Source: a virus. From it: 64,000 nucleotides of DNA. The stretch's first letter is position 1. The number at the start of each line of letters is the position of its first letter. Under the pieces are notes generated by a model. The model saw only the letters and a program-made list of their open reading frames with translations. It was not told the DNA's origin and made no database searches. Positions 741-12,459 of this stretch are shown piece by piece. The stretch spans positions 1 to 64,000 of IMG/VR virus record IMGVR_UViG_3300003323_001359; one strand, written 5' to 3'. A program made the position numbers and the translations under genes.

Positions 741-1200
741 CACCTCCTCAGTGATACCACCTTATCACATCAACTGATGAAGATGGCAGTGACATCGGTC
801 GTCGTGTCACGTGTCAGACGTGTCAGTGCCACCGACACCCGCTGGCATCGGTGGCACCGATCTGGGGACTCAACGTGGTCAAGAGACGAGCCGCTCCCTG
901 GCCGCGCGCAGCCGACGAGCCGCGGTGGAGTGTGTCATGTTGAACCTCTTCTGGACCATCTTGACGGTGACGGCGTTCACGCCGTCCCTCTCGATCAGCT
1001 TGAGGATGGCCTCGATCTCGAGGTTGGCACTGCCGCTTCGGGGTGCCAGTGCCACGGGACGTGGCACGAGTGACACGGCAGGAGGTGTCACCTCCTCGGT
1101 GTCACCGACGCTCTCAGGGGTGTCAACCGTGGTGTCAGTGTCAGTGTCAGTGTCAGTGTCGGTGTCAGCTGACACCTGCTCGATGGCATCTGACACCTCG
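80..1200. repeat. Dense field of GTGYCA/TGRCAC hexamers
   Basis: About 38 exact copies counted by eye, including a tandem GTGTCA run at about 1132-1167 and a cluster in the 780-860 intergenic gap. Confidence 0.85.
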
Positions 1201-2018
1201 AACGGCATCGGGTACCTCAGGTCGTGGATCCTCTCCGCGTTCGCGGCCAGCTTCATCGAGTTGATGAACAGCTTGAGGGTCTCGGGATCGTTCGCGACGT
1301 CGGCTCGAGCCAGCAACTTGATGAACTTGCGTCGCCTACGCGGCTTGCCGTCACCGGTCATGAAGACGCGCACGGCGCTCGCGACGGCGTGCTGACGAGC
1401 GATCACCTTGGCGTCTCGTTCCTCGTCGCTGAGACCCAGGAAGGCGAGCACGCGCTCCCTCAGCTCACGCGTGACGCGCACCCACACGGAGTCATCCTTG
1501 ATCCTTAGGCTGCGGATCTCGATGCCGAGCGCGAGGTGAAGCATGACCAGCGACAGGATGGGTCCCAGCACGACTCGCGCGATGCCGATCCACGGGCCGC
1601 TGAGGCTCCACGCCATGTAGGCGGACACGGCGCAGAGAAACCACGCGATCAGACGAGCCGGCCCCGGCTTGCCGTGCTCACGGATGGACGCGCGCATGCC
1701 CCAGCCGCACGCGACCTGAGCGAGCTCCAGAACGAAGAACATGATGCCTCGTTCCACGACGTCGTCAACGTGCAGCACCTCACCGAAGTAGCTCCAGCTC
1801 GTGTTCAGGGACACGGTCATCCCCGCGAGCGCCGCGGCGTAGAACATCCCGGTGCCCGACGCGTCCGTGGGCTGCCGCGGTCGACGGGCCCACGCGATGA
1901 CGCTCAGCACGGTGGAGCGCAGCAGCCACAGCGTCAGCAGCGCCAGCGCGCCGTACCCGAGACCCACGAGCCACGGGCTGAGGTAGATCATCGACGCCCA
2001 TAGGGCGGACAGGCTCAC
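879..2018 (-). CDS. DUF2637/Spd-like multi-TM protein with C-terminal winged-HTH
   Basis: Several TM segments (LNTSWSYF, ELAQVACG, GPILSLVMLHLALGIE), DTDTDT linker, C-terminal VTVKMVQKRFNMTHSTAARRL resembling an FtsK-gamma-like wHTH. Confidence 0.6.
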   Translation of the reverse strand: MSLSALWASMIYLSPWLVGLGYGALALLTLWLLRSTVLSVIAWARRPRQPTDASGTGMFYAAALAGMTVSLNTSWSYFGEVLHVDDVVERGIMFFVLELAQVACGWGMRASIREHGKPGPARLIAWFLCAVSAYMAWSLSGPWIGIARVVLGPILSLVMLHLALGIEIRSLRIKDDSVWVRVTRELRERVLAFLGLSDEERDAKVIARQHAVASAVRVFMTGDGKPRRRRKFIKLLARADVANDPETLKLFINSMKLAANAERIHDLRYPMPFEVSDAIEQVSADTDTDTDTDTDTTVDTPESVGDTEEVTPPAVSLVPRPVALAPRSGSANLEIEAILKLIERDGVNAVTVKMVQKRFNMTHSTAARRLRAARERLVS

Positions 2019-2086
2019 GATCGCTCCCTTCCTCGTTCACGTTCCGACAGGTGTTTACAATACCGCATCAAGTTGCAGAGATACAG

Positions 2087-2119
2087 CGAGGGGCGGATCC
2101 GCTCGGGATCCGCCCCTCG
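2087..2119. terminator. Intrinsic terminator-like hairpin
   Basis: 14-bp perfect stem CGAGGGGCGGATCC/GGATCCGCCCCTCG just downstream of the leftward operon. Confidence 0.7.
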
Positions 2120-2126
2120 TTCTCGG

Positions 2127-2315
2127 TCAGCTCTCGTCGTCGTTGAGAACCTCGTTCGGGTCGACGTCGAGGTCGATGAGTCTCAGCCGAAGCGTGTCGT
2201 TCTGCCTGGTCAGCCGCTCGTTGGTGCGGGTGAGGTGACGGTTGTGGGCCCGCTCCTCACGGAGCCTCGCGGTCAGTCGAGTGATCGTTCGCGTGCACCA
2301 CCGGATGATGCTCAC
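2127..2315 (-). CDS. Hypothetical coiled-coil protein
   Basis: GTG overlaps the upstream stop (GTGA); operon packing. Confidence 0.5.
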   Translation of the reverse strand: MSIIRWCTRTITRLTARLREERAHNRHLTRTNERLTRQNDTLRLRLIDLDVDPNEVLNDDES

Positions 2316-2509
2316 GGCTGGATCACCCGGACGTACCACCGGCCCCTCTTCAGCCAGTCATCGGTGTTCGTGGGGAGCTGGATGGTGCCGTCGCTCAGCA
2401 GCTGGAACGTCTCGACGCAGTCACCCTCGTACCTGACCTCGAGACCGACGGCGTCCACGCGCACCCACGTTCCCGGTGCGACGTCGATGAGCGTGACTTC
2501 CTCAATCAC
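2312..2509 (-). CDS. Hypothetical protein
   Basis: RBS GGGAG, GC3-rich frame, operon packing. Confidence 0.6.
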   Translation of the reverse strand: MIEEVTLIDVAPGTWVRVDAVGLEVRYEGDCVETFQLLSDGTIQLPTNTDDWLKRGRWYVRVIQP

Positions 2510-2520
2510 GGTGGTCTCCC

Positions 2521-3009
2521 TCAGTCGCAGGCGCTCGTCTCGAGGCGCTCGGGAAGGTCGGCGTCCTTCCAGTCCTCAGTCAGGTAGCCCCGCGAGTCGG
2601 TGTTGTACTGGTTCACCGTGTTCAGGCACTGCTGCCGCAGGCCGGTCACGTTGGTGACCAGCGACTGCCGCGCCTGGACGTCCTGCATCCCCATCAGGCC
2701 GTCCTCGCTCGTGAGGTTCGGGTGCAGCTTGTCGAAGTCGGCGAGGTCCTGCCTGGCCTGAGCGATCTTCTGCGTGAACGCGGTGACGTCGTTCGCCTCA
2801 CGGTGGAACGCGACTTGCGCCGCGACCCAGTTCGACGCCGAGTTCTTCTGCCGGTAGGCGTCGCCCTGCCCCCACCAGTAGGAGAACCCGGTCGCGAGGC
2901 CCCAGCCCAGCGCGATCACCGCGAACCCAGCGAGCACGGCGAGGATGAGCAGCCCGAACCCGGTGCTCAGGGGCCGCCTGTCCAGCGACCGCTCCCAGTT
3001 GTAGCCCAT
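2521..3009 (-). CDS. Single-TM membrane protein with coiled coil
   Basis: MGYNW start abuts the upstream stop; hydrophobic FGLLILAVLAGFAVIALGWGLA. Confidence 0.7.
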   Translation of the reverse strand: MGYNWERSLDRRPLSTGFGLLILAVLAGFAVIALGWGLATGFSYWWGQGDAYRQKNSASNWVAAQVAFHREANDVTAFTQKIAQARQDLADFDKLHPNLTSEDGLMGMQDVQARQSLVTNVTGLRQQCLNTVNQYNTDSRGYLTEDWKDADLPERLETSACD

Positions 3010-3614
3010 CACTTGCCTCCGATCTTCGCGAGGCCGCCCTTGTCCAGCGGCGACCCCTGGTTCGCGTTGTAGGTGATGACCGGCTGGGTGCTGAAGGTCA
3101 TCGGGGTATCGGACTCGACCGCGGACAGGCCGTTGCACGGCAGCCGGATCTCGTTGCCGGACGTGGTGAAGAAGTCGTAGCAGAACGGCTCCGGGCCCCA
3201 CGTGCCGTTGTCACCCGGCGCGTCGACGACGCCGCTGCCGCCGTTGCTGGACCACGAGATGGACTGGCTGTTGGTCATCTGGCTGTCGGGCGAGAAGACC
3301 ATGCCCTTGATGGTCCACTGCGCGACGAGAGCGCCGGTCATCGGCACGATCCAGTACACGTAGTGGATCGCGTTCGGGTCGTTCTGCCGGAGCAGGTGCT
3401 CCTTCAGGAGGGTGCGCTCGGTCCAACCGCCGGCGTCCATCTGGCTCAACGGGTAGGGCACCGCGTTTTGGGCGTGCTGAGAGTACTGCTCGGTGACCTG
3501 CTGAGCCTGGCTCTGCGCGCTGCCGGTGCCGCACGAGTCGGCCATCAGGGCGATGGGCAGGACGCCCACGGCGACCAGCGTGGTCAGCACCCTCTGTCGA
3601 CGGGTCAGCTTCAT
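3009..3614 (-). CDS. Putative lipoprotein
   Basis: Basic N-terminus, hydrophobic stretch, then LMADSC (atypical lipobox). Confidence 0.65.
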   Translation of the reverse strand: MKLTRRQRVLTTLVAVGVLPIALMADSCGTGSAQSQAQQVTEQYSQHAQNAVPYPLSQMDAGGWTERTLLKEHLLRQNDPNAIHYVYWIVPMTGALVAQWTIKGMVFSPDSQMTNSQSISWSSNGGSGVVDAPGDNGTWGPEPFCYDFFTTSGNEIRLPCNGLSAVESDTPMTFSTQPVITYNANQGSPLDKGGLAKIGGK

Positions 3615-3868
3615 TCCTCAGTTCCTTCCTGGGTGGGGAGCGGCGTGCGCCGCGCCCGGACTCTGTCATCAACCTTGACGCGGAGCTGCGTCTCGTCCTC
3701 GAACGTGAACAGCACGATGCCGTTCTCCTCGTCGCGCTGCTTGCGCCTGACGCGTCGCCAGACGCCGTCCGGCGGCTCAACCTGGATCTCGTAGCCAGTC
3801 TTCACCTTGACCGCGACGCGGTTGTACTCGGGAAGCTCGCCGTAGCGAACCGCGTGGTGTCGCGCCAC
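3611..3868 (-). CDS. Hypothetical protein
   Basis: Operon packing, GC3 bias. Confidence 0.6.
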   Translation of the reverse strand: MARHHAVRYGELPEYNRVAVKVKTGYEIQVEPPDGVWRRVRRKQRDEENGIVLFTFEDETQLRVKVDDRVRARRTPLPTQEGTEE

Positions 3869-3869
3869 G

Positions 3870-4301
3870 TCAGTCCCCTCTCGTGGGCCACACGTACGGC
3901 AGGTCGAGCGGCACGTCCGGCCACAGCGCGCCGTAGTGCTCGGGGTTCTTGCGGATCAGGTTGGAACGGTGGCTGCGGTGAAACGCGACGTCGCCGAGCC
4001 ACGGTGGGTCGACGTCGAACCGCGGCGGCACCCCGTACTCGAGCGCCAGATCGAGGGTCTTGCCCCAGCACGTGTCCCGGTAGCCGCGCTCGGTCCACTC
4101 CTGGCAGATCACGGCCTGGTAGCGAAGGAGGACGGGCTCGTAGCCGCGCCACATCCTGGTCGCGGGATGGTTGACCCAGCCCCCACCGGTCAGGAGCGCC
4201 GTCATGATCTGCAGCGTCTCGACGCGCTGCTTGCCGAGGCGCTGACGGTCGAGCGACCGCGCCGTCTCACCGAAGTCGACGTCGGGAAGAAAGGTCTGCA
4301 C
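3870..4301 (-). CDS. Pyrimidine-dimer DNA glycosylase family (MSMEG_6728-like)
   Basis: MQTFLP...LDRQRLGKQRVETLQI...NHPATRMWRG...HRSHRSNLIRK...YVWP signature. Confidence 0.85.
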   Translation of the reverse strand: MQTFLPDVDFGETARSLDRQRLGKQRVETLQIMTALLTGGGWVNHPATRMWRGYEPVLLRYQAVICQEWTERGYRDTCWGKTLDLALEYGVPPRFDVDPPWLGDVAFHRSHRSNLIRKNPEHYGALWPDVPLDLPYVWPTRGD

Positions 4302-4309
4302 GTCACCCT

Positions 4310-4786
4310 CTAGAAGTAGTCCGCGGTCAGGAACCACGTGGGGGTCGGGTGCGTGGGCCTCAGGTTGAGCGTCTCGAACGCCCTCTCGAACTGCAGCACG
4401 AGCTGCTCGTTGCAGGCGATCCGTCCGACGACCTCGAGGTCAACCGCTGAGGTGTCGCCCCACTCGGCGTCGAACTGCGGCTCCTTGAGAACCAGGGCGA
4501 ACGAGTTGAGATCGTAGCCGTGGGAGTGCACCTCGAGGCCGGCGCTGAGCGGCTTTCCCGTGACGTCGAAGGTCACGGAGTCGAGATGCTTGAGTCCGAG
4601 CTCCATCACCTCGGTGTAGCTGAGGTCGTCCCACTCGTCGATCTGATCCTCGGTCAGCCACGGGAGGTCCGTGGGCTCGAGGGACGCGTACCCCAGCTCG
4701 TCCTTGGGTTCCCGCAGGAGCCAGCCCTCGTCGCTGCCGCCGAGCGGCACCCCGAACACGAGGTGACCGTGCGCGTTCTGTCCCAT
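4310..4786 (-). CDS. Hypothetical protein
   Basis: RBS GAGGTGAGG before MGQNAH. Confidence 0.65.
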   Translation of the reverse strand: MGQNAHGHLVFGVPLGGSDEGWLLREPKDELGYASLEPTDLPWLTEDQIDEWDDLSYTEVMELGLKHLDSVTFDVTGKPLSAGLEVHSHGYDLNSFALVLKEPQFDAEWGDTSAVDLEVVGRIACNEQLVLQFERAFETLNLRPTHPTPTWFLTADYF

Positions 4787-4857
4787 CCTCACCTCTCTCG
4801 ACACAATTCATCAATGATGCCTGTGACCGTATCGCCGCTCGCGACGCTCGTCCAGGG

Positions 4858-5043
4858 CTAGATCTCGTCGCAGATGTCCTGCAGGCAGTTCTCACAGAGG
4901 TACCGCAGGATCGTACGGCCGTTGACGTCCGACTCGTAGGGATCCACGTAGCGCTCACCCGTGCCGGTGCAGCGGCTGCCGCTCTCCGAGCACCGCGCGA
5001 CCAGCGGCAACGACCAGCGACCGGTTGTCTCCACGTCGCTCAT
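4858..5043 (-). CDS. Small Cys-rich (Zn-binding) protein
   Basis: C..C...DPY...LCENC pattern. Confidence 0.6.
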   Translation of the reverse strand: MSDVETTGRWSLPLVARCSESGSRCTGTGERYVDPYESDVNGRTILRYLCENCLQDICDEI

Positions 5044-5270
5044 CCCTCCCGGTAGTCCACGACCACGATCTCCGCCTCGGAGCCGTGCGCGACCCCGAGC
5101 TCCCGGGCCTCAGCGAAGGCCGGCGACCGCCAGCGATCCCCGTTCTCGGACCGATGCCGGCTGCTCGCGACCAGGTCACGGGCCGCGGTCTCGTTCAGCG
5201 CGATCACGACCGCCTGGTTGAGCTCACCGCGGTCGACGTGACCCAACCGGTCGAGGTGGAAGATCCTCAC
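5040..5270 (-). CDS. Hypothetical protein
   Basis: Operon packing. Confidence 0.55.
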   Translation of the reverse strand: MRIFHLDRLGHVDRGELNQAVVIALNETAARDLVASSRHRSENGDRWRSPAFAEARELGVAHGSEAEIVVVDYREG

Positions 5271-5288
5271 GACCCTCGCTCCTTATAT

Positions 5289-5657
5289 CTAGTAGATCGA
5301 GGCGACGCGAGCGAACTCTCGAGCCGCGGTCGGGTCCTTGGGACGGAACTCGTGGAGGTGACGAAAGAACTCGTCACGGGTGTACTTCTTCACCGGGACG
5401 GTCTTGTAGCCGTGCCGCGAGTGCGCGTGCAGCTTGATCTCGGTCTGGCCGGTCGTCGAGGTGGTGACGCCGCGGGAGAACTGCGGCGCGAAGCGACGCG
5501 CGGTGTCCTCGTCGATGCCGACCCGCTCCAGCCAGACGCGCGCCGGCTGCGGCTCGCCGCTCTCGGTGAGACGGTGGATGCGGTTCAGGTGGCGGGTCGC
5601 CGCCGCGAGCTCGCGCCGGATCCGCTGCAGCCGCCTGCGCTCGGACCTCTTCGACAT
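5289..5657 (-). CDS. Hypothetical basic protein, first gene of the leftward operon
   Basis: Directly downstream of a TTTACA promoter, strong RBS. Confidence 0.7.
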   Translation of the reverse strand: MSKRSERRRLQRIRRELAAATRHLNRIHRLTESGEPQPARVWLERVGIDEDTARRFAPQFSRGVTTSTTGQTEIKLHAHSRHGYKTVPVKKYTRDEFFRHLHEFRPKDPTAAREFARVASIY

Positions 5658-5694
5658 CCGTGGTCTCCCTCCGTGGTTCCTCGTTCCTGGGACT

Positions 5695-5723
5695 ACCGTA
5701 CCACCCTGAGAGGGAGATGTAAA
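5695..5723 (-). promoter_or_regulatory. SigA-like promoter TTTACA-N17-TACGGT
   Basis: Member of a promoter family repeated at least 9 times in the window. Confidence 0.8.
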
Positions 5724-5782
5724 CAGTAATCTTAGCTGAACATCGTTGTCATCAACCTTGCGTCGCTGGTACGATGTTCACC

Positions 5783-6445
5783 ATGGATGACGTGAAGACC
5801 CTTCCCCCGCTCAAGCAGCGGGTCGCCAGCTACCCGCTCAGCTTCCTCGCGGTGCGCCACGTCGTGCTCGAGCCCGACACGCCCAACGAGCGAGCGCTCG
5901 TCTACGCGTGGGACGCCTGCGCGGCTCTCGGTGTGGATCTCAACGAGATCTCGACGCTCGACCCTCAGGAGGTGAGCAAGGTCGACGTCTACGAGGGCCA
6001 GCAGCTCACCGAGTCGGTTCTCCTGACCACGGCGGGCGTTCGACGGCTCGCCGGCCTGGACGGTGATCCCGAGCGTTCCCGGTTCGTGACCTGGGTTGAG
6101 ACCGAGCTTCTTCCTCGCCGCACCGGCCACCGCGCACCCAACCCGAACCGCACCAAGTGGGGCTGGCAGCCCATCCGCGACCTCGTCCGTGACCACGGCT
6201 ACACCGCGCGACGGTTCACCGAGGAGGCCAACGCGCTCGACCTGCCCGGTGTCGATCACTTCAACCAGGGTAACTACATCGCGTGGGCCTACGGCGGCTG
6301 CCTGCCGGCGGAGTCCCTCGTCAGGCGAGCCTGCGTCCTGCTCGGCGTGAACGAGAACGAGCTGTTCAACGCCGACGTCCTCGCCGCCTACCCGAGCCGC
6401 GGCCGCGGCCGCCGTCGGCGCCGCGTTGAGGAGGCTCGCGGGTGA
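5783..6445 (+). CDS. BRO-N-like plus C-terminal HTH regulator (probably leaderless)
   Basis: DACAALG...LLTTAGVRRL...RFVTWVETELLP (BRO-N-like); XRE-like C-terminus; TTGTCA-N18-TACGAT ends 7 nt before ATG 5783; divergent from the 5695 promoter. Confidence 0.65.
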   Translation: MDDVKTLPPLKQRVASYPLSFLAVRHVVLEPDTPNERALVYAWDACAALGVDLNEISTLDPQEVSKVDVYEGQQLTESVLLTTAGVRRLAGLDGDPERSRFVTWVETELLPRRTGHRAPNPNRTKWGWQPIRDLVRDHGYTARRFTEEANALDLPGVDHFNQGNYIAWAYGGCLPAESLVRRACVLLGVNENELFNADVLAAYPSRGRGRRRRRVEEARG

Positions 6446-6621
6446 GCGAGGATCCGAGCAGCCAGCCCGACATGTCACCGTTCGAGACGACGGAGGTGTC
6501 GAAGCTCGTGCAGGACGCGATCGCGATGCACGAGATCCTCACGTCCCTGATGAGGGGCGGTTGGACCGAGCGTCAGGCGATCATCTACCTCGTCGAGATG
6601 GGCCGACCGCGACGTGACTGA
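6442..6621 (+). CDS. Small hypothetical protein (59 aa)
   Basis: GTGA overlap; ...AMHEILTSLMRGGWTERQAIIYL...; below the ORF-track cutoff. Confidence 0.55.
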   Translation: MSEDPSSQPDMSPFETTEVSKLVQDAIAMHEILTSLMRGGWTERQAIIYLVEMGRPRRD

Positions 6622-7030
6622 CCGCAAGAGCCGACCCGCGAAGCGAGTCCCCGACCCTCTCACCGCGAGACGCGTCCGCTGGCGGTCCGAGATCGACGAG
6701 ACGGAGCTGACCGCCGCGTTCATGTATCTCACCCTTCTGATGGAGGATGACGTCGCGTCGATCATCGTAGAGAACTTCCGCAACCAGGTCGACACCCATC
6801 GTCGTCAGCCGCTCGATCTGCTTCGCGCCGCGGAGCTGCCGCTGCTGAAGCGCGACAACCCACACGTCACCGCGGAGCTCGTTCGCGTCGCCGGCGGTGC
6901 CCGGTTGACACCCGTGCTCTACCTGCGGGGCAACACGCGGCGACCGCCGGTCATCGTCACCGGCTACCACCGGATCTGTGCCTCGTACCACTGCGACCCC
7001 ACCGCCGACATCAACGTGAAGCTGGTGTGA
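6614..7030 (+). CDS. Hypothetical protein (possible ParB-like fold)
   Basis: TPVLY...VIVTGYHRIC resembles the ParB/Srx DGxHR motif. Confidence 0.55.
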   Translation: MTDRKSRPAKRVPDPLTARRVRWRSEIDETELTAAFMYLTLLMEDDVASIIVENFRNQVDTHRRQPLDLLRAAELPLLKRDNPHVTAELVRVAGGARLTPVLYLRGNTRRPPVIVTGYHRICASYHCDPTADINVKLV

Positions 7031-7713
7031 CCGTGACCAACGACCATCTGACCCTCCGTGGCGTCGCCCTGCGCGGTGACCGCCTCAAGCGCACCGAGGA
7101 GCTTCGCCGGGGCGTCACCTTCACCGACGACAGCGTCACGCTTCGCACCGTGCGTGACGAGCTGATCGGGCAGGCCGCGCTCGACCTCAACGACGAGGGG
7201 GACATCGTCGTTGAGGCAGTCGTGCCGATCGACCAGGTTGACAAGCTGAGCGGCTCACCGTACCTCTGCGTCGCGGCGCGCCTTCACGAGGACGAGCCGG
7301 CCGACCTCGGCTTCATCCTCGTCACGCCCTCCTCCGGTGACGCGCTGCAGCTGCCGTACCGGCTCACCCGCGTTCCCGAGGGATGCGAGGGGCAGCTGCG
7401 GCGCGAGGGCTACCGCCCGGTGCGGGTCGTGGATCAGGCGACGCTCGTGGAGCTCAGCCTCAACGAGCGAGGTCAGGTTGAGCCGAGCTGGGACGACGAG
7501 ACCACCCACGTCGAGTGGCAGCACGCGAGTGAGATCGACCACGTCGACGTGTCGAACGCGATCGCGCGGGCGCTCGGCCACGGGTCGTGGCACCAGCTCA
7601 CCGAGAGCGGCGACGAGGGTGACGTGGAGCTCGGCCGGCGGATCTTCATGGAGCTCAACCACCGGCGGATCTTCATGGAGCTCAACCACCTGGATCTGCG
7701 CGGCCGGCACTGA
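7027..7713 (+). CDS. Hypothetical protein
   Basis: GTGA overlap, GC3 bias. Confidence 0.6.
   Translation: MTVTNDHLTLRGVALRGDRLKRTEELRRGVTFTDDSVTLRTVRDELIGQAALDLNDEGDIVVEAVVPIDQVDKLSGSPYLCVAARLHEDEPADLGFILVTPSSGDALQLPYRLTRVPEGCEGQLRREGYRPVRVVDQATLVELSLNERGQVEPSWDDETTHVEWQHASEIDHVDVSNAIARALGHGSWHQLTESGDEGDVELGRRIFMELNHRRIFMELNHLDLRGRH
7635..7688 (+). repeat. Perfect 27-bp tandem duplication (in frame, RRIFMELNH x2)
   Basis: CCGGCGGATCTTCATGGAGCTCAACCA at 7635-7661 and 7662-7688. Confidence 0.95.
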
Positions 7714-8606: not shown

Positions 8607-8879
8607 TCAACGATCGAAGGTGACGGGGCCGTGGATGTCCCCGCCGGTCTGGTAGGCGGTGCCGGTGACCGGGCCGTTGATGGTGTTGTTGACCACGCGA
8701 CGGTTGGCGTGCGCCGCCACGAGCTCCGTCTCGAGGTGCTCGCTGACCGGCCTGCCGGAGCCGATCCACGCGACGTCGAAGACCTTGACTCCCTTGCGCT
8801 TGCCCTTGTAGCTGATGATGACGCCCAGGTGCTCTCGTCGGGCGTCGCTCTTGCGGTAGACCTTGTCCGCCTCGTCCAC
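8607..8879 (-). CDS. Small protein with a C-terminal BASS-like amyloid-motif sequence
   Basis: GTG 8879 after GAGAGGA; C-terminus VNNTINGPVTGTAYQTGGDIHGPVTFDR. Confidence 0.6.
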   Translation of the reverse strand: MDEADKVYRKSDARREHLGVIISYKGKRKGVKVFDVAWIGSGRPVSEHLETELVAAHANRRVVNNTINGPVTGTAYQTGGDIHGPVTFDR

Positions 8880-8915
8880 GCTCGTTCCTCTCATCCATCG
8901 CTCGTTGCTGGTGCA

Positions 8916-8944
8916 ACCGTACCACGTCCGCGGCAACTTGTAAA
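8916..8944 (-). promoter_or_regulatory. Promoter TTTACA-N17-TACGGT
   Basis: Exact spacing, same promoter family. Confidence 0.8.
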
Positions 8945-8969: not shown

Positions 8970-8999
8970 TGGACAACGCTCGGAGCTGCCTGGTACGGT
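8970..8999 (+). promoter_or_regulatory. Promoter of the tRNA/Y-RNA array, TGGACA-N18-TACGGT
   Basis: Divergent from the 8916 promoter, immediately 5' of the RNA cluster. Confidence 0.6.
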
Positions 9000-9034
9000 T
9001 TCACCATCACCGGTTGAACCCCGGTGGGTAGCAA

Positions 9035-9193
9035 GGGAACCTCCCGGTGCGAACGCACTCGGATACTTCAACCGGAACTCTGGGTTACGGGTTCGAGTCC
9101 CGTCGTCCCGACCTAGGTCGGGACGTGGCTCAACAGGCAGAGCAAGAGTCAGCAAGGACGCCGAGAGCGATCCCTGGTCTCGGGTAGGTTCTC
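9035..9193 (+). ncRNA. Y RNA-like 1 (YrlA-type, permuted tRNA-like domain, Pro-like acceptor)
   Basis: Terminal stem GGGAACCT-CCCG/CGGG-AGGTTCTC; GGTGCG...TACTTC...GGTCT motifs; internal order T arm, loop-closed acceptor (CGGGACG/CGTCCCG), D arm. Confidence 0.8.
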
Positions 9194-9195
9194 GA

Positions 9196-9268
9196 GGGTC
9201 TGTGGCGCAACTGGCAGCGCAGCCGTCTCCAACACGGAAGGTTCCAGGTTCGAGCCCTGGCGGGCCTG
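9196..9268 (+). tRNA. tRNA-Trp(CCA)
   Basis: Cloverleaf; anticodon loop CTCCAAC; T loop TTCGAGC. Confidence 0.9.
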
Positions 9269-9280
9269 CTTAGGAAACGA

Positions 9281-9351
9281 GCCCCACTGGTGTAACGGTA
9301 GCACCTCCGCCCCTCGAGCGGAGAGCGCCGGTTCGATCCCGGCGTGGGGTA
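9281..9351 (+). tRNA. tRNA-Glu(CTC), non-canonical C33/G37
   Basis: GCCCCAC/GTGGGGT acceptor; TCCGC-CCCTCGA-GCGGA. Confidence 0.85.
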
Positions 9352-9502
9352 CGGGGTGTCGGCACGACGGCGAACCCTGCGGAACGGTCCCGGGACCTCA
9401 CCCGCATCAGAGCTCGATGCGTAGCGAGCTTAAGCCAGGGGATGACCCGGCATCGTGCGTAGCGTGGAGAGGGAGGACCCGGTTCGATCCCGGGATGCCG
9501 GC
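9352..9502 (+). ncRNA. Unassigned structured RNA ending in a T arm plus acceptor-like stem
   Basis: CCCGG-TTCGATC-CCGGG followed by ATGCCGG pairing with CCGGCAT (9447-53); several upstream hairpins. Confidence 0.5.
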
Positions 9503-9569
9503 GCGACGTCCCGCACTCTGGGAGCCGGCAGAGGTGGTGTAGCTGGAGCACACCCTCTCAACGCGGCGA

Positions 9570-9644
9570 GGCTGTCTAGCTCAGTCAGGTTAGAGCACCG
9601 CCCTGATAAGGCGGGGGTCGGTGGTTCAAGTCCATCGGCAGCCA
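9570..9644 (+). tRNA. tRNA-Ile(GAT)
   Basis: Cloverleaf; CCGCC-CTGATAA-GGCGG. Confidence 0.92.
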
Positions 9645-9646
9645 CG

Positions 9647-9716
9647 GCGGGAAGTCGGGGGTTCGAGTCCCCTCACCTCCACCTCATGGGGGTGTACCTC
9701 AGCGGCAGAGGACCGC
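9647..9716 (+). ncRNA. Circularly permuted tRNA-Ala-like element (no anticodon loop)
   Basis: GCGG, variable region, T arm (GGGGG-TTCGAGT-CCCCT), CACCTCC-A, linker, GGGGGTG, D arm (CCTC/GAGG), CCGC; G3-U70 and A73 present. Confidence 0.7.
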
Positions 9717-9721
9717 GGCAA

Positions 9722-9793
9722 GCTGGTGTAGCTCAATGGGAGAGCGCTCCCCTGTCCAGGGAGAGGTCGCGGGTTCGATCCCCGTCTCCGGCG
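9722..9793 (+). tRNA. tRNA-Asp(GTC), non-canonical C37
   Basis: CTCCC-CTGTCCA-GGGAG; G73. Confidence 0.88.
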
Positions 9794-9818
9794 CGGGTGG
9801 CGAGTACGACGCCGCCAA

Positions 9819-9938
9819 GTTGAGATCGACAGACCGGGTCCGTCAGGTTCAACTCCTTGGCTGGACGCCGACCGTCTCGTACGCGGTTGAGGGTTCGATT
9901 CCCACCTGGTGGTAGGATCACGGTCGACAGATCTCAAC
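9819..9938 (+). ncRNA. Structured RNA with two T-loops and an anticodon-like hairpin
   Basis: GTTGAGATC/GATCTCAAC stem, GACA/GACA internal loop, GACCG/CGGTC stem; AGG-TTCAACT-CCT, ACCGT-CTCGTAC-GCGGT, GGG-TTCGATT-CCC. Confidence 0.65.
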
Positions 9939-9942
9939 GCTT

Positions 9943-10016
9943 GGCTGCCTAGCTCAGGTTGGCAGAGCGCCCGGTTGAAGCCCGGGAGGTCGCTGGTTCG
10001 AGGCCAGCGGTAGCCA
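9943..10016 (+). tRNA. tRNA-Phe(GAA), G37
   Basis: CCCGG-TTGAAGC-CCGGG; full cloverleaf. Confidence 0.9.
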
Positions 10017-10059
10017 CGAGCTTGACCCGTGCTTGCTGCACACTTGCGCGGTTCAAGCA

Positions 10060-10190
10060 TCACCTCGGTGCGAAGCTGAGCGGGTACTTCCTCGTGGAAT
10101 CGTGGGTTCGAATCCCATCGACCGGCGTGCCGGTCGTTCGCCGCAGCGGCCAAGCGGCATACCCCAACCAGCTGCCAGGTCTCGAGGTGA
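10060..10190 (+). ncRNA. Y RNA-like 2 (YrlA-type)
   Basis: TCACCTCG/CGAGGTGA stem; GTGCG, TACTTC, CAGGTCT; order T arm, closed acceptor, D-like arm. Confidence 0.8.
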
Positions 10191-10201
10191 CCACAACTTC
10201 A

Positions 10202-10349
10202 TCGTCGCGGTGCGCGCGTGAGCGGTTCCTTCACACAACCCTCGCAAGGTTGAGGTGTGGGTTCGAGTCCCACCGACCCCTCGGGGTCGTGGTGTAATCG
10301 GTAGCACGTTACTGAAGACAACACCGCCCATCATCAGGTCTCGCGACGA
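10202..10349 (+). ncRNA. Y RNA-like 3 carrying a complete permuted tRNA (anticodon CGC)
   Basis: TCGTCGCG/CGCGACGA stem; GTGCG, TCCTTC, CAGGTCT; anticodon arm CAACC-CTCGCAA-GGTTG, T arm, closed acceptor, D arm. Confidence 0.8.
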
Positions 10350-10369
10350 CCCACAACTACACACAGGCT

Positions 10370-10455
10370 TCGCCACGGTGCGAAGACCGGCGGATACTTC
10401 AATCGACTGTTAATCGGTAGCGAAACTCCGTCGGTCAGCTCAGGTCTCGTGGTGA
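10370..10455 (+). ncRNA. Y RNA-like 4 carrying only an Asn anticodon stem-loop
   Basis: TCGCCACG/CGTGGTGA stem; GACCGGCGGA/TCCGTCGGTC stem; TACTTC; ATCGA-CTGTTAA-TCGGT. Confidence 0.78.
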
Positions 10456-10457
10456 TC

Positions 10458-10558
10458 TCGTGAGCGACCGGGACGGTGCGCTGACGGACGGCTACTTCAA
10501 CGGCTGATGGTGAACACGCCGCCCGTCGCATCAGGTCTCGTCCCGGCCCAGCTCACGA
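10458..10558 (+). ncRNA. Y RNA-like 5 (minimal scaffold)
   Basis: CCGGGACG/CGTCCCGG stem plus outer TCGTGAGC/GCTCACGA; GTGCG, TACTTC, CAGGTCT. Confidence 0.75.
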
Positions 10559-10561
10559 CCC

Positions 10562-10635
10562 AGCGGGGTAGCGCAGCTCGGTAGCGCGATGGGCTCATAA
10601 CCCACAGGTCGCGGGTTCAAATCCCGTCCCCGCAA
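10562..10635 (+). tRNA. Initiator tRNA-fMet(CAT)
   Basis: 1:72 mismatch, three G-C pairs in the anticodon stem, loop CTCATAA. Confidence 0.92.
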
Positions 10636-10676
10636 CTCGGTCCCACGTTGACAGGCAGGCGACGGGGGACCGCCCA

Positions 10677-10716
10677 CGAGACCCCGATCACGCCCCGACG
10701 CGTGATCGGGGTCTCG
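10677..10716 (+). terminator. Perfect 17-bp hairpin between the RNA array and Ro60
   Basis: CGAGACCCCGATCACGC/GCGTGATCGGGGTCTCG. Confidence 0.65.
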
Positions 10717-10746
10717 CTCTGTCTGACGAGGAAGGAGCTAGGAACG

Positions 10747-12459
10747 ATGGCAGGATTCAACAAGGTGTCGGCTCAGCCGCGACGGCTGGCGGCCAGCGGG
10801 CCGCTGCGCACCGTGAGCGACGTCTCGGACACCGTCACCCACGAGAGCGCTCCCGGCTTCCAGCGCGACGCGCAGTCCGAGCTGTTCCTGCGCGCGACCA
10901 CGCGCTTCGTCGGTGAGAGGGCCTTCTACGAGACCGCGGACGCCGGTACCGACCGGCTGCGTGAGCTCGTGAGCCAGCTCGCCGTCGACGACGAGACGTG
11001 GCCGTGGGTGCGGGTCTTCCTCTCGTGGCTGCGCGGTCCGGGCAACATCCGCACCGCGTCGATCCTGCTCGCCGCGGAGGCCGTGCACTCGCGGCTCGCG
11101 GCCGGCAAGCTGGGAGACGGCAACCGTGAGCTGATCACATCGGTGCTGCAGCGACCGGACGAGCCGGGTGAGATGATCGCCTACTGGCGACACCGGTTCG
11201 GGGTCAAGCGGAGCGACGGCACGATCATCGTCCGCCTGCCGAAGCCGGTCAAGCGCGGCATCGCCGACGCCGCCACGCGGCTCTACGACGAGGCCGCGTT
11301 CCTGCGCTACGACGGCGAGGGCAAGGCGGTCCGGATCGGTGACGTGCTGGAGCTGACCCACGCCGACGTCCGCGTCTCGAGCGAGGAGCGCACCTGGCAA
11401 GACGACGTGTTCCGGTGGGCGATCACCGCGCGTCGAGGCCGCGACGCGGAGCCCCCGGAGTCCCTGACCCGGATCCACCTGCGGCACGTCCTGTCCCGGT
11501 ACGAGCCCGACCAGCGCCACGCGCTCGCGAGGAGCGCGCTCGACGGCAGCCAGGTCTCCCTGGACCTGATCCACGGCGCGATGGCCGGTCAGTGGGAGTG
11601 GCTCAAGCCGTGGCTCGGTGAGCGACCGACCGAGGTGACGCCCCTGACCGACGCCGAGATCTGGCAGCTCGCGCTGCCGACCATGGGGTACATGGCCCTG
11701 CTTCGCAACCTGCGGAACCTGGACCAGGCCGGCGTCCCGGATCCCGTGGTCGCGCCGGTGATCGCGCGCCTCGCCGACCCGGAGCAGGTCGCGAGGAGCC
11801 GTCAGCTGCCGTTCCGGCTCTGGTCCGCGTACCAGGAGGTCTCGTCCCTGCGGTGGGGCCACGCCCTGGAGCAGGCCCTGAACCACTCGCTGCGGAACGT
11901 GCCGGTCCTCGATGGCCGGACGCTCGTGCTCGTCGACGTCTCGGACTCGATGACGTGGGGCAAGCTGTCCGGGAGCTCCAAGATGGACTACGCGACCGCG
12001 GCCGCGATCTTCGGTCTCGCGCTGAAGATCCGCAACCCGGGAGGCGTCGACCTGTGGGGCTTCGCGAACCAGCAGTTCCACGTCACCGGCGTCGACGCCG
12101 GCTCGAGCCTGCTTCGGATGGTTGAGGCGTTCCGTCGGCAGCAGGGACGGGTCGGCGGCGGCACCGAGATCGCCCGGGCGATCCGGGAGACGCTGCGAGA
12201 CGACCACGCCCGCGTGATCATCCTCACCGACATGCAGACGTTCGGTGGGAACCACTGGCAGGTCGGTGACGTCGACACCGCCGCGCCGCGGGACATCCCG
12301 ATCTACGCGTTCAACGTCGCCGGCTACAAGAGCTCGGCGATGCCGGTTCAGCTGGGCAACAACCGTCACGAGCTCGGTGGCCTCACTGACGCGACGTTCG
12401 GCCTGATCCGGATCCTTGAGGCTGGGCAGGCAGGGCGGTGGCCGTGGGAGCTGAGCTGA
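10747..12459 (+). CDS. Ro60/TROVE-domain RNA-binding protein with C-terminal vWA domain
   Basis: RDAQSELF, LQRPDEPGE, PKPVKRGIADA, DVLELTH, MGYMALLRNLRN, SRQLPFR, vWA MIDAS DVSDSM, GGTEI, IILTDMQ; ATG 10747 after GAAGGAG. Confidence 0.93.
   Translation: MAGFNKVSAQPRRLAASGPLRTVSDVSDTVTHESAPGFQRDAQSELFLRATTRFVGERAFYETADAGTDRLRELVSQLAVDDETWPWVRVFLSWLRGPGNIRTASILLAAEAVHSRLAAGKLGDGNRELITSVLQRPDEPGEMIAYWRHRFGVKRSDGTIIVRLPKPVKRGIADAATRLYDEAAFLRYDGEGKAVRIGDVLELTHADVRVSSEERTWQDDVFRWAITARRGRDAEPPESLTRIHLRHVLSRYEPDQRHALARSALDGSQVSLDLIHGAMAGQWEWLKPWLGERPTEVTPLTDAEIWQLALPTMGYMALLRNLRNLDQAGVPDPVVAPVIARLADPEQVARSRQLPFRLWSAYQEVSSLRWGHALEQALNHSLRNVPVLDGRTLVLVDVSDSMTWGKLSGSSKMDYATAAAIFGLALKIRNPGGVDLWGFANQQFHVTGVDAGSSLLRMVEAFRRQQGRVGGGTEIARAIRETLRDDHARVIILTDMQTFGGNHWQVGDVDTAAPRDIPIYAFNVAGYKSSAMPVQLGNNRHELGGLTDATFGLIRILEAGQAGRWPWELS

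Follow-up and report, generated by a model that had tools for sequence, protein, structure and literature searches.

A 90-residue protein of an actinobacterial-type phage with a BASS2-class amyloid signalling tail: a candidate decoy for host NLR signalling

Why would a phage encode, at the head of a short transcription unit, a 90-residue protein that ends in what resembles a bacterial amyloid signalling motif? In fungi, animals and filamentous bacteria, amyloid (prion-like) signalling passes from NLR sensors to death effectors. The gene in question belongs to a 77.9-kb IMG/VR virus record, of which the first 64 kb (68% GC) form the stretch of DNA analysed here, hereafter the window; the CheckV completeness estimate for the record is ∼70%, and its source is an uncultured phage of actinobacterial type. 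In BASS signalling the amyloid fold is transmitted from an oligomerised sensor to a motif at the C-terminus of the effector (bioRxiv 10.1101/2020.01.06.895854), and in filamentous Actinobacteria the motifs of class BASS2 are found on Bell-domain effectors and on NB-ARC/NACHT NLRs (10.1101/2020.01.06.895854; class C02 in PMC8086366). A sequence-only reading of the window had proposed that the phage protein carries a BASS-like tail and poisons such assemblies as a decoy.

Translation of the minus strand at this locus (Table 1) gives a 90-residue protein terminating in ...VVNNTINGPVTGTAYQTGGDIHGPVTFDR, which reproduces exactly the tail that had been quoted in the sequence-only reading. The GC content of this ORF at codon positions 1, 2 and 3 (0.64, 0.44 and 0.92) identifies it as the coding frame, since the third-position value is 0.55 in the same-frame upstream extension and 0.55–0.66 in those ORFs that overlap it on the other strand. 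The GTG start at 8879 is conserved in related phages, while an upstream ATG at 8894 is not. When the window was aligned with two related phage contigs (L003 and L006), two hexamers resembling −35 and −10 elements proved to be invariant, the latter being preceded by a conserved GTGG, while the 17-nt spacer that separates them varied in sequence among the relatives; this combination points to a promoter footprint upstream of the 90-aa gene. A generic sigma-70 scan scored no site at 8916–8944. As had been proposed, the 90-aa gene is the first gene behind this promoter, and it is the leading member of a leftward unit of three genes, divergent from a tRNA array. The second gene of the unit, which specifies a KOW-motif protein, is co-oriented and starts 33 nt past the stop codon of the 90-aa gene; it is syntenic in four related contigs (L003–L006; 55% identity), and the C-terminal part of its product, of ∼100 residues, has no assignment.

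Table 1. Coordinates of the 90-aa gene, its parts and its neighbours in the window
Feature	Position	Strand	Remarks
CDS of the 90-aa protein (P0001)	8607–8879	−	GTG start at 8879, stop at 8607–8609
Head, residues 1–57	8709–8879	−	N-terminal; predicted beta-rich, five strands
Tail, residues 61–90	8610–8699	−	C-terminal; BASS2-class amyloid signalling motif (assigned from its sequence)
Shine-Dalgarno-like GAGAGGA	8886–8892	−	6 nt before the GTG; purine-rich equivalent in relatives
−10-like hexamer TACGGT	8916–8921	−	Actinobacterial TANNNT type; invariant in L003/L006
−35-like hexamer TTTACA	8939–8944	−	Invariant in L003/L006
Second gene, 148 aa	8128–8574	−	N-terminal KOW motif (Pfam PF00467, E 2.7e-6)
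Third gene, 84 aa	7877–8131	−	No family match; syntenic, ∼80% identity
Six tRNAs	9196–10636	Opposite to the 90-aa gene	Directly upstream of the 90-aa gene
Polynucleotide kinase, 170 aa	12678–13190	+	PHROG 505/415, E 1.3e-35

The tail follows the pattern N-x-h-x-G-x-h-x-G-x-h-h-Q-x(3-4)-h-x-G-x-h-x-F and ends two residues before the stop. The motif pattern given in the sequence-only reading fits it if one extra residue is allowed, a variant also present in a host tail (L064). For a host motif profile, a DNA pattern was used to collect 13 natural motifs from named actinomycete genomes (Streptomyces, Saccharothrix, Nocardiopsis, Saccharomonospora, Micromonospora and others); six of the 13 lie ∼40 aa upstream of NB-ARC/AAA_16 and TPR regions, and most of the remainder stand at the end of small ORFs. 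The eight tails of the phage family described below scored 9.7–26.3 bits against this profile, which is sharper than a full BASS2 model because its 13 motifs share a selected 10-mer, and which is distinct from the published BASS pHMMs. Each of the eight scored above all 1000–2000 shuffles of its own residues (shuffle maximum, 8–14 bits). In a six-frame translation of the 77.9-kb record (∼70% complete) the tail was the top match to the host profile with nothing else close, and no second BASS motif was found.

The motif sets of Dyrka et al. (supplement of PMC8086366), in which class C02 is BASS2, were then compared with the phage tails. Five- to seven-residue words from the tails of the family occurred almost only in the BASS2 file; counts in this file were 141 for HGPV, 41 for IHGGV, 10 for GPVTF and 5 for RFDR. 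An assignment to BASS1 was rejected, none of the searched tail words being present in the BASS1 file and all of them pointing to BASS2; membership of the RHIM-like class BASS3 (C03) was likewise rejected, since the tail belongs with C02 and has no I/V-Q-I/V-G core. Near-identical stretches among the published BASS2 motifs include ...NTVNGDVSGTVIQGRDFHGDLRFDR and ...VVNTIIGEVTGTAIQAHTIHGGI. Several published tails nearly copy individual phage tails: one shares a VTGTA-x-Q stretch with the phage, and the QADTIHGG and QAHTIHGG cores of two family members (P0004 and P0006, respectively) recur in other published tails.

In the opposite direction, a profile of the phage family was searched in 301 genomes sampled across the Actinomycetes, as well as in 453 genomes making up three family sets. 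In the 301-genome search it matched actinomycete genomes only via the tail (model positions 56–87), the best matches having E-values of 3e-6 to about 1e-3 per genome (G028 and G034 gave weak matches only); the lowest E-value over the host searches was 5.8e-7 per genome. The positions of 24 host matches were determined: the nine strongest of the 301-genome search, eleven from the family of genome G109 and four from the two other families. Twenty-one of them fell in the terminal 0–35 residues of small ORFs, one of which immediately follows a TPR ORF, with the host tails ending 0–6 residues before the stop; two lay N-terminally in AAA_16/TPR-type proteins that are 559 aa long or longer, and the remaining one (L037) was internal to a larger protein. 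One host tail (L031) shared 55% identity with the phage tail over 30 aa, with an FDR end in both, while that of L064 could be aligned without gaps (15/28 positions identical) and had the same one-residue-longer Q-x-x-G-D-h-H-G arc. Three independent lines agree, and the tail is, at the level of the motif, a genuine match to the BASS2 class. It matches BASS profiles in both directions, and the lack of a profile match, which the sequence-only reading had named as grounds for refutation, was thus not observed; the 'BASS-like' label of that reading can be narrowed to BASS2.

Some of the matches did not conform to this layout or were discarded. The internal match (L037 979–1737, genome G226) is a BASS2-like stretch, …NYVGGGTVDGSIIQAGNIHGGITFN…, of a 253-aa protein; 46 residues separate the stretch from the stop, further beta-prone sequence comes after it, and the protein is possibly a beta-solenoid. 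The BASS2-like pattern is therefore not exclusive to signalling tails. In another host locus (L033 580–1659, genome G132), two divergent small ORFs with overlapping 5′-ends each bear a BASS2-like motif followed by a second shared motif, (A)RYGGDHVD; one of the two N-termini is hydrophobic and membrane-like, and the pair differs from the classical Bell/NLR layout. A near-full-length match in genome G424 was rejected, as it was composed of a host Bell-like tail and a frame artefact. The only two matches of the host-type VQARDIHG motif in IMG/VR contigs, in DNA of 51–52% GC, were considered spurious.

The frequency of the tail differed among the three families when genomes with a phage-profile match at E ≤ 1e-3 per genome were counted. 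There were 43 such genomes among the 151 of the family of Saccharomonospora (Pseudonocardiaceae; the count includes the unpublished genome G643), 20 of 151 in the family that contains Nocardiopsis ansamitocini, and a single one of 151 in that of the Streptomyces prunicolor genome. The phage tails thus resemble a short-arc BASS2 variant that is common in Pseudonocardiaceae-type genomes. As for the host guess in the sequence-only reading, its Pseudonocardiaceae side stood, the closest variants being found there, while its Streptomyces side did not, the tail being rare in that family. The likeness provides a modest clue to the host, in that resemblance to particular host sub-variants would indicate which family of hosts an uncultured phage infects.

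The 90-aa protein has few relatives. A HMMER pass over 1.84 billion representative proteins retrieved only three true ones; a profile search of a 5.8-billion protein set enlarged the family to eight clusters, all of 87–90 aa. No fused or longer form of the protein scored, which is weak evidence. The sequence-only reading had named homologues lacking the tail as a finding that would speak against it; this objection fails, since the tail is kept in all eight members, with G73, Q77 and G84 invariant and the leading N (N65) nearly so. In the four contigs L003–L006, recovered from viral and metagenome collections, the gene occupies the equivalent place, with the tRNA array on one side and the KOW-motif and 84-aa genes on the other. 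About 20 neighbouring genes are common to the window and these four contigs, with protein identities of 40–86%, and the 90-aa gene is the most diverged of these ∼20 syntenic genes (38% identity). The fast divergence of the gene, together with tails that sample natural host sub-variants, fits an arms race. Neither a search for cultured relatives (tblastn with the protein as query and 50,697 phage records as targets; no real match) nor a search for prophage copies in 185,579 species genomes (none) added to the family. A 510-aa tandem-repeat protein on a 1.44-Mb ENA contig (P0005) gave five matches to head residues 9–50 (E 1e-7); its repeats end in a SDHYGLG-like segment, and it was judged to be probably unrelated or incidental.

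The part of the protein that precedes the tail is less informative. In the AF2 model the head reaches pLDDT values of about 72–76 over residues 20–50 (mean of the whole model, 52.7), and the tail is disordered in the monomer prediction; the prediction of a four-copy complex obtained a score of 0.16, below the mark, which lends assembly no support and does not count against it. The 90-aa protein had no match in Pfam or NCBIfam and only marginal ones in PHROGs (E above 0.01). When the head was submitted to fold searches, the best match was the RBBP1 chromodomain (Z 3.0, rmsd 3.9 over 59 residues), with many ties; the matches of this moderate-confidence predicted model were weak and chromo/Tudor/SH3-like, all with Z ≤ 3. 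A BFVD fold search of the head gave a best E-value of 0.18, and the ESM Atlas no usable match to it. The head is predicted to be beta-rich, unlike the helical Bell bundle, and no Bell domain or other cell-death or immune effector domain was found in it by AF2, Pfam or NCBIfam.

Regarding the setting of the motif, it lies at the extreme C-terminus, as on effector-side proteins. The 77.9-kb record (∼70% complete) contains no adjacent NB-ARC/NACHT protein with the same motif, the pairing typical of BASS2, nor any other NB-ARC/NLR protein. Given the lack of profile matches for the head, the weak and tied fold matches and the missing partner motif, the 90-aa protein is, as far as predicted models allow, an orphan, effector-side BASS2 tag whose head looks neither enzymatic nor membrane-targeting. 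Even so, the head itself may be the active part of the protein.

What such a tag would do for the phage is the central question. We give about even odds (roughly 0.5) to the protein being an effector-side BASS2 mimic, that is, a decoy that would jam the amyloid signalling of host NLRs. In filamentous actinomycetes, an activated NB-ARC/TPR (NLR-like) sensor oligomerises, and its N-terminal BASS motif nucleates a cross-beta fold that templates the same motif at the C-terminus of an effector; the templated effector, of the membrane-attacking Bell type, then kills the infected cell. The phage protein, whose gene has a conserved promoter of its own, would take the effector's place in templating or join it, diverting the growing amyloid into an inert hetero-polymer, and abortive infection would fail. 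The beta-rich head of the decoy would probably be inert. For a BASS2-tailed phage protein, a decoy appears to be the most economical reading. Within it, we infer that the tail forms amyloid, that the protein is made early and co-assembles with host proteins, and that the outcome is inhibition instead of activation; one BASS2 tail might either seed or block signalling, and an inhibitor and an activator cannot be told apart by their sequence.

Compared with the BASS2 motifs of cellular genomes, the phage tail has the same pattern and length (about 25–28 aa, N..hxG.h.G.hhQ...h.G.h.F), the same effector-side C-terminal placement and 54–55% identity to natural tails, and the sub-variants seen in the phages are those of Pseudonocardiaceae and Nocardiopsis-type genomes. 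The differences are that it is encoded by a phage, with no adjacent paired NLR and no Bell or other death domain, and that it is joined to a small beta-rich domain that has no relatives outside the phage lineage. That phages have reason to counter BASS signalling is indicated by the Bab/Agp system of Escherichia coli, in which Bell/BASS amyloid signalling aborts phage infection (preprint 10.1101/2024.11.07.622273); this system uses a different class of motif (BASS11), its sensor is a TGP and not an NLR, and the preprint mentions no phage counter-measure (10.1101/2024.11.07.622273).

Viral proteins that act in the manner proposed do exist. The RHIM decoys of herpesviruses (MCMV M45, HSV ICP6/ICP10 and VZV ORF20) form hetero-amyloids with RIPK3/ZBP1 and block necroptosis (PMC13506858). 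Like the phage protein, they are virus-encoded copies of a host amyloid motif without an executioner domain; the shared working principle is a proposal in the case of the phage protein. They are, however, proteins of more than 1000 aa, against 90 aa in the phage, and their motif has the I/V-Q-I/V-G core of the RHIM/BASS3 type, while the phage tail is of the BASS2 class and would face a prokaryotic host. A second precedent is the CARD-only protein of Acinetobacter phage 133, which inhibits a bacterial CARD/gasdermin defence (PMC10312443). This is likewise a small, free copy of a host signalling adaptor that jams homotypic assembly, but it is a folded death-fold domain validated by experiment, whereas the BASS2 tail is an amyloid motif recognised from its sequence.

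An alternative, which we consider unlikely, is that the tail serves the phage itself in self-assembly or as a beta-arch, for example by polymerising the head domain of the protein or a scaffold, and that its likeness to BASS2 arose by convergence and has nothing to do with host immunity. The motif has little length and a simple composition (a G/N/Q/V-rich beta-arch pattern), a similar stretch exists inside the non-terminal host protein of L037, and a chromo/Tudor/SH3-like head followed by a KOW-motif gene could point to nucleic-acid or ribosome biology. Simple composition, however, does not account for the likeness, which rests on residue order: none of the 1000–2000 shuffles reached the real score. 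The gapless identity of 54–55% to host tails also extends to the spacing variant and the terminal FDR, and different phage tails resemble different natural BASS2 sub-variants (e.g. QADTIHGG and QAHTIHGG). The host matches located, that of L037 apart, are moreover at signalling positions.

The motif evidence is identical for the decoy and for a use of the same channel to listen or to hijack, in which templating by an activated host NLR would switch the phage protein on or off, making it a sensor of the host alarm that retunes the phage programme, or the phage protein would seed the Bell effector and so aid lysis. Amyloid templating is a switch by nature, the tail is attached to a folded (predicted) head that might be a regulator, and a KOW-motif protein is encoded beside it; yet the head has no recognisable effector or regulatory domain, nucleation normally requires an oligomerising NOD module that the phage protein does not have, and those viral proteins known to exploit host amyloid or adaptor motifs act as inhibitors (PMC13506858, PMC10312443). 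Such hijacking or eavesdropping seems improbable. Its more elaborate form, given slightly less credence, is that the phage reads the host alarm: an activated NLR would template the BASS2 tail, this would switch the head and change the phage programme, and the co-transcribed KOW-motif protein would perhaps be switched as well. Were this so, the protein would be a virus-encoded receiver wired into a prion-like signalling channel of the host. Least probable of all, in our estimate, is that the phage carries the gene for defence or superinfection exclusion, its BASS2-tagged product being an effector that a host NLR would activate against competing phages or against the cell. Defence genes are frequent in phages, and host BASS motifs are also found on effectors other than Bell, among them TIR, CHAT and hydrolases (Dyrka et al.), but a 57-residue beta head without enzymatic or membrane-targeting signature, the lack of an integrase or lysogeny module in the record (∼70% complete) and the conserved slot of the gene in apparently lytic relatives all speak against it.

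Viral mimicry of host amyloid or adaptor signalling is already known; what would be new here is the combination of a phage with BASS2. In the searchable literature, BASS motifs have been described only in cellular genomes, with no phage mimic of BASS found, and viral amyloid-motif decoys were found only in herpesviruses. A phage lineage with a free, fast-evolving effector-side BASS2 tag would thus be the first prokaryotic counterpart in that literature. If the decoy reading is true, the gene would provide independent genetic evidence for an antiphage role of actinobacterial NLR/Bell pairs of class BASS2, and a natural inhibitor with which the specificity of amyloid templating might be probed; the 90-aa protein and its 30-aa tail would make a small, tractable test system.

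Other features of the phage provide context for the gene. The window contains a long rightward block of large genes, with the terminase first; this terminase shares only 42% identity with the closest one found in looking for cultured relatives. No integrase or lysogeny module was identified in the 77.9-kb record (∼70% complete by CheckV). The sequencing runs listed for phage words included no RNA dataset; one root-metagenome DNA run contains 0.20 of the sampled phage words.

On the opposite strand, directly upstream of the 90-aa gene, the region 9035–12459 comprises the six tRNAs, structured RNA-like spacers and a Ro-like gene. The product of the latter, an RNA-binding protein of 603 aa, is encoded by DNA that is 66.5% identical to that of Ro-like genes from Streptomyces jumbo phages. 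Close by, positions 8990–9010 show strong conservation with the related phage contigs. A PHROG scan took in ten further genes, nine from the left arm and one to the right of the Ro-like gene; the latter, the polynucleotide kinase gene, gave the sole match. The polynucleotide kinase and the adjacent Ro-like gene look like an RNA repair or end-healing module. The nine left-arm ORFs (122–379 aa; window 879–7713) gave no PHROG match at E ≤ 1e-5. These genes are syntenic in L003–L005, with 40–79% identity, and the ORF at 7027–7713 is the second most diverged (40% identity). These left-arm genes (879–7713) form a lineage-specific accessory block, and other counter-defence genes may lie inside it.
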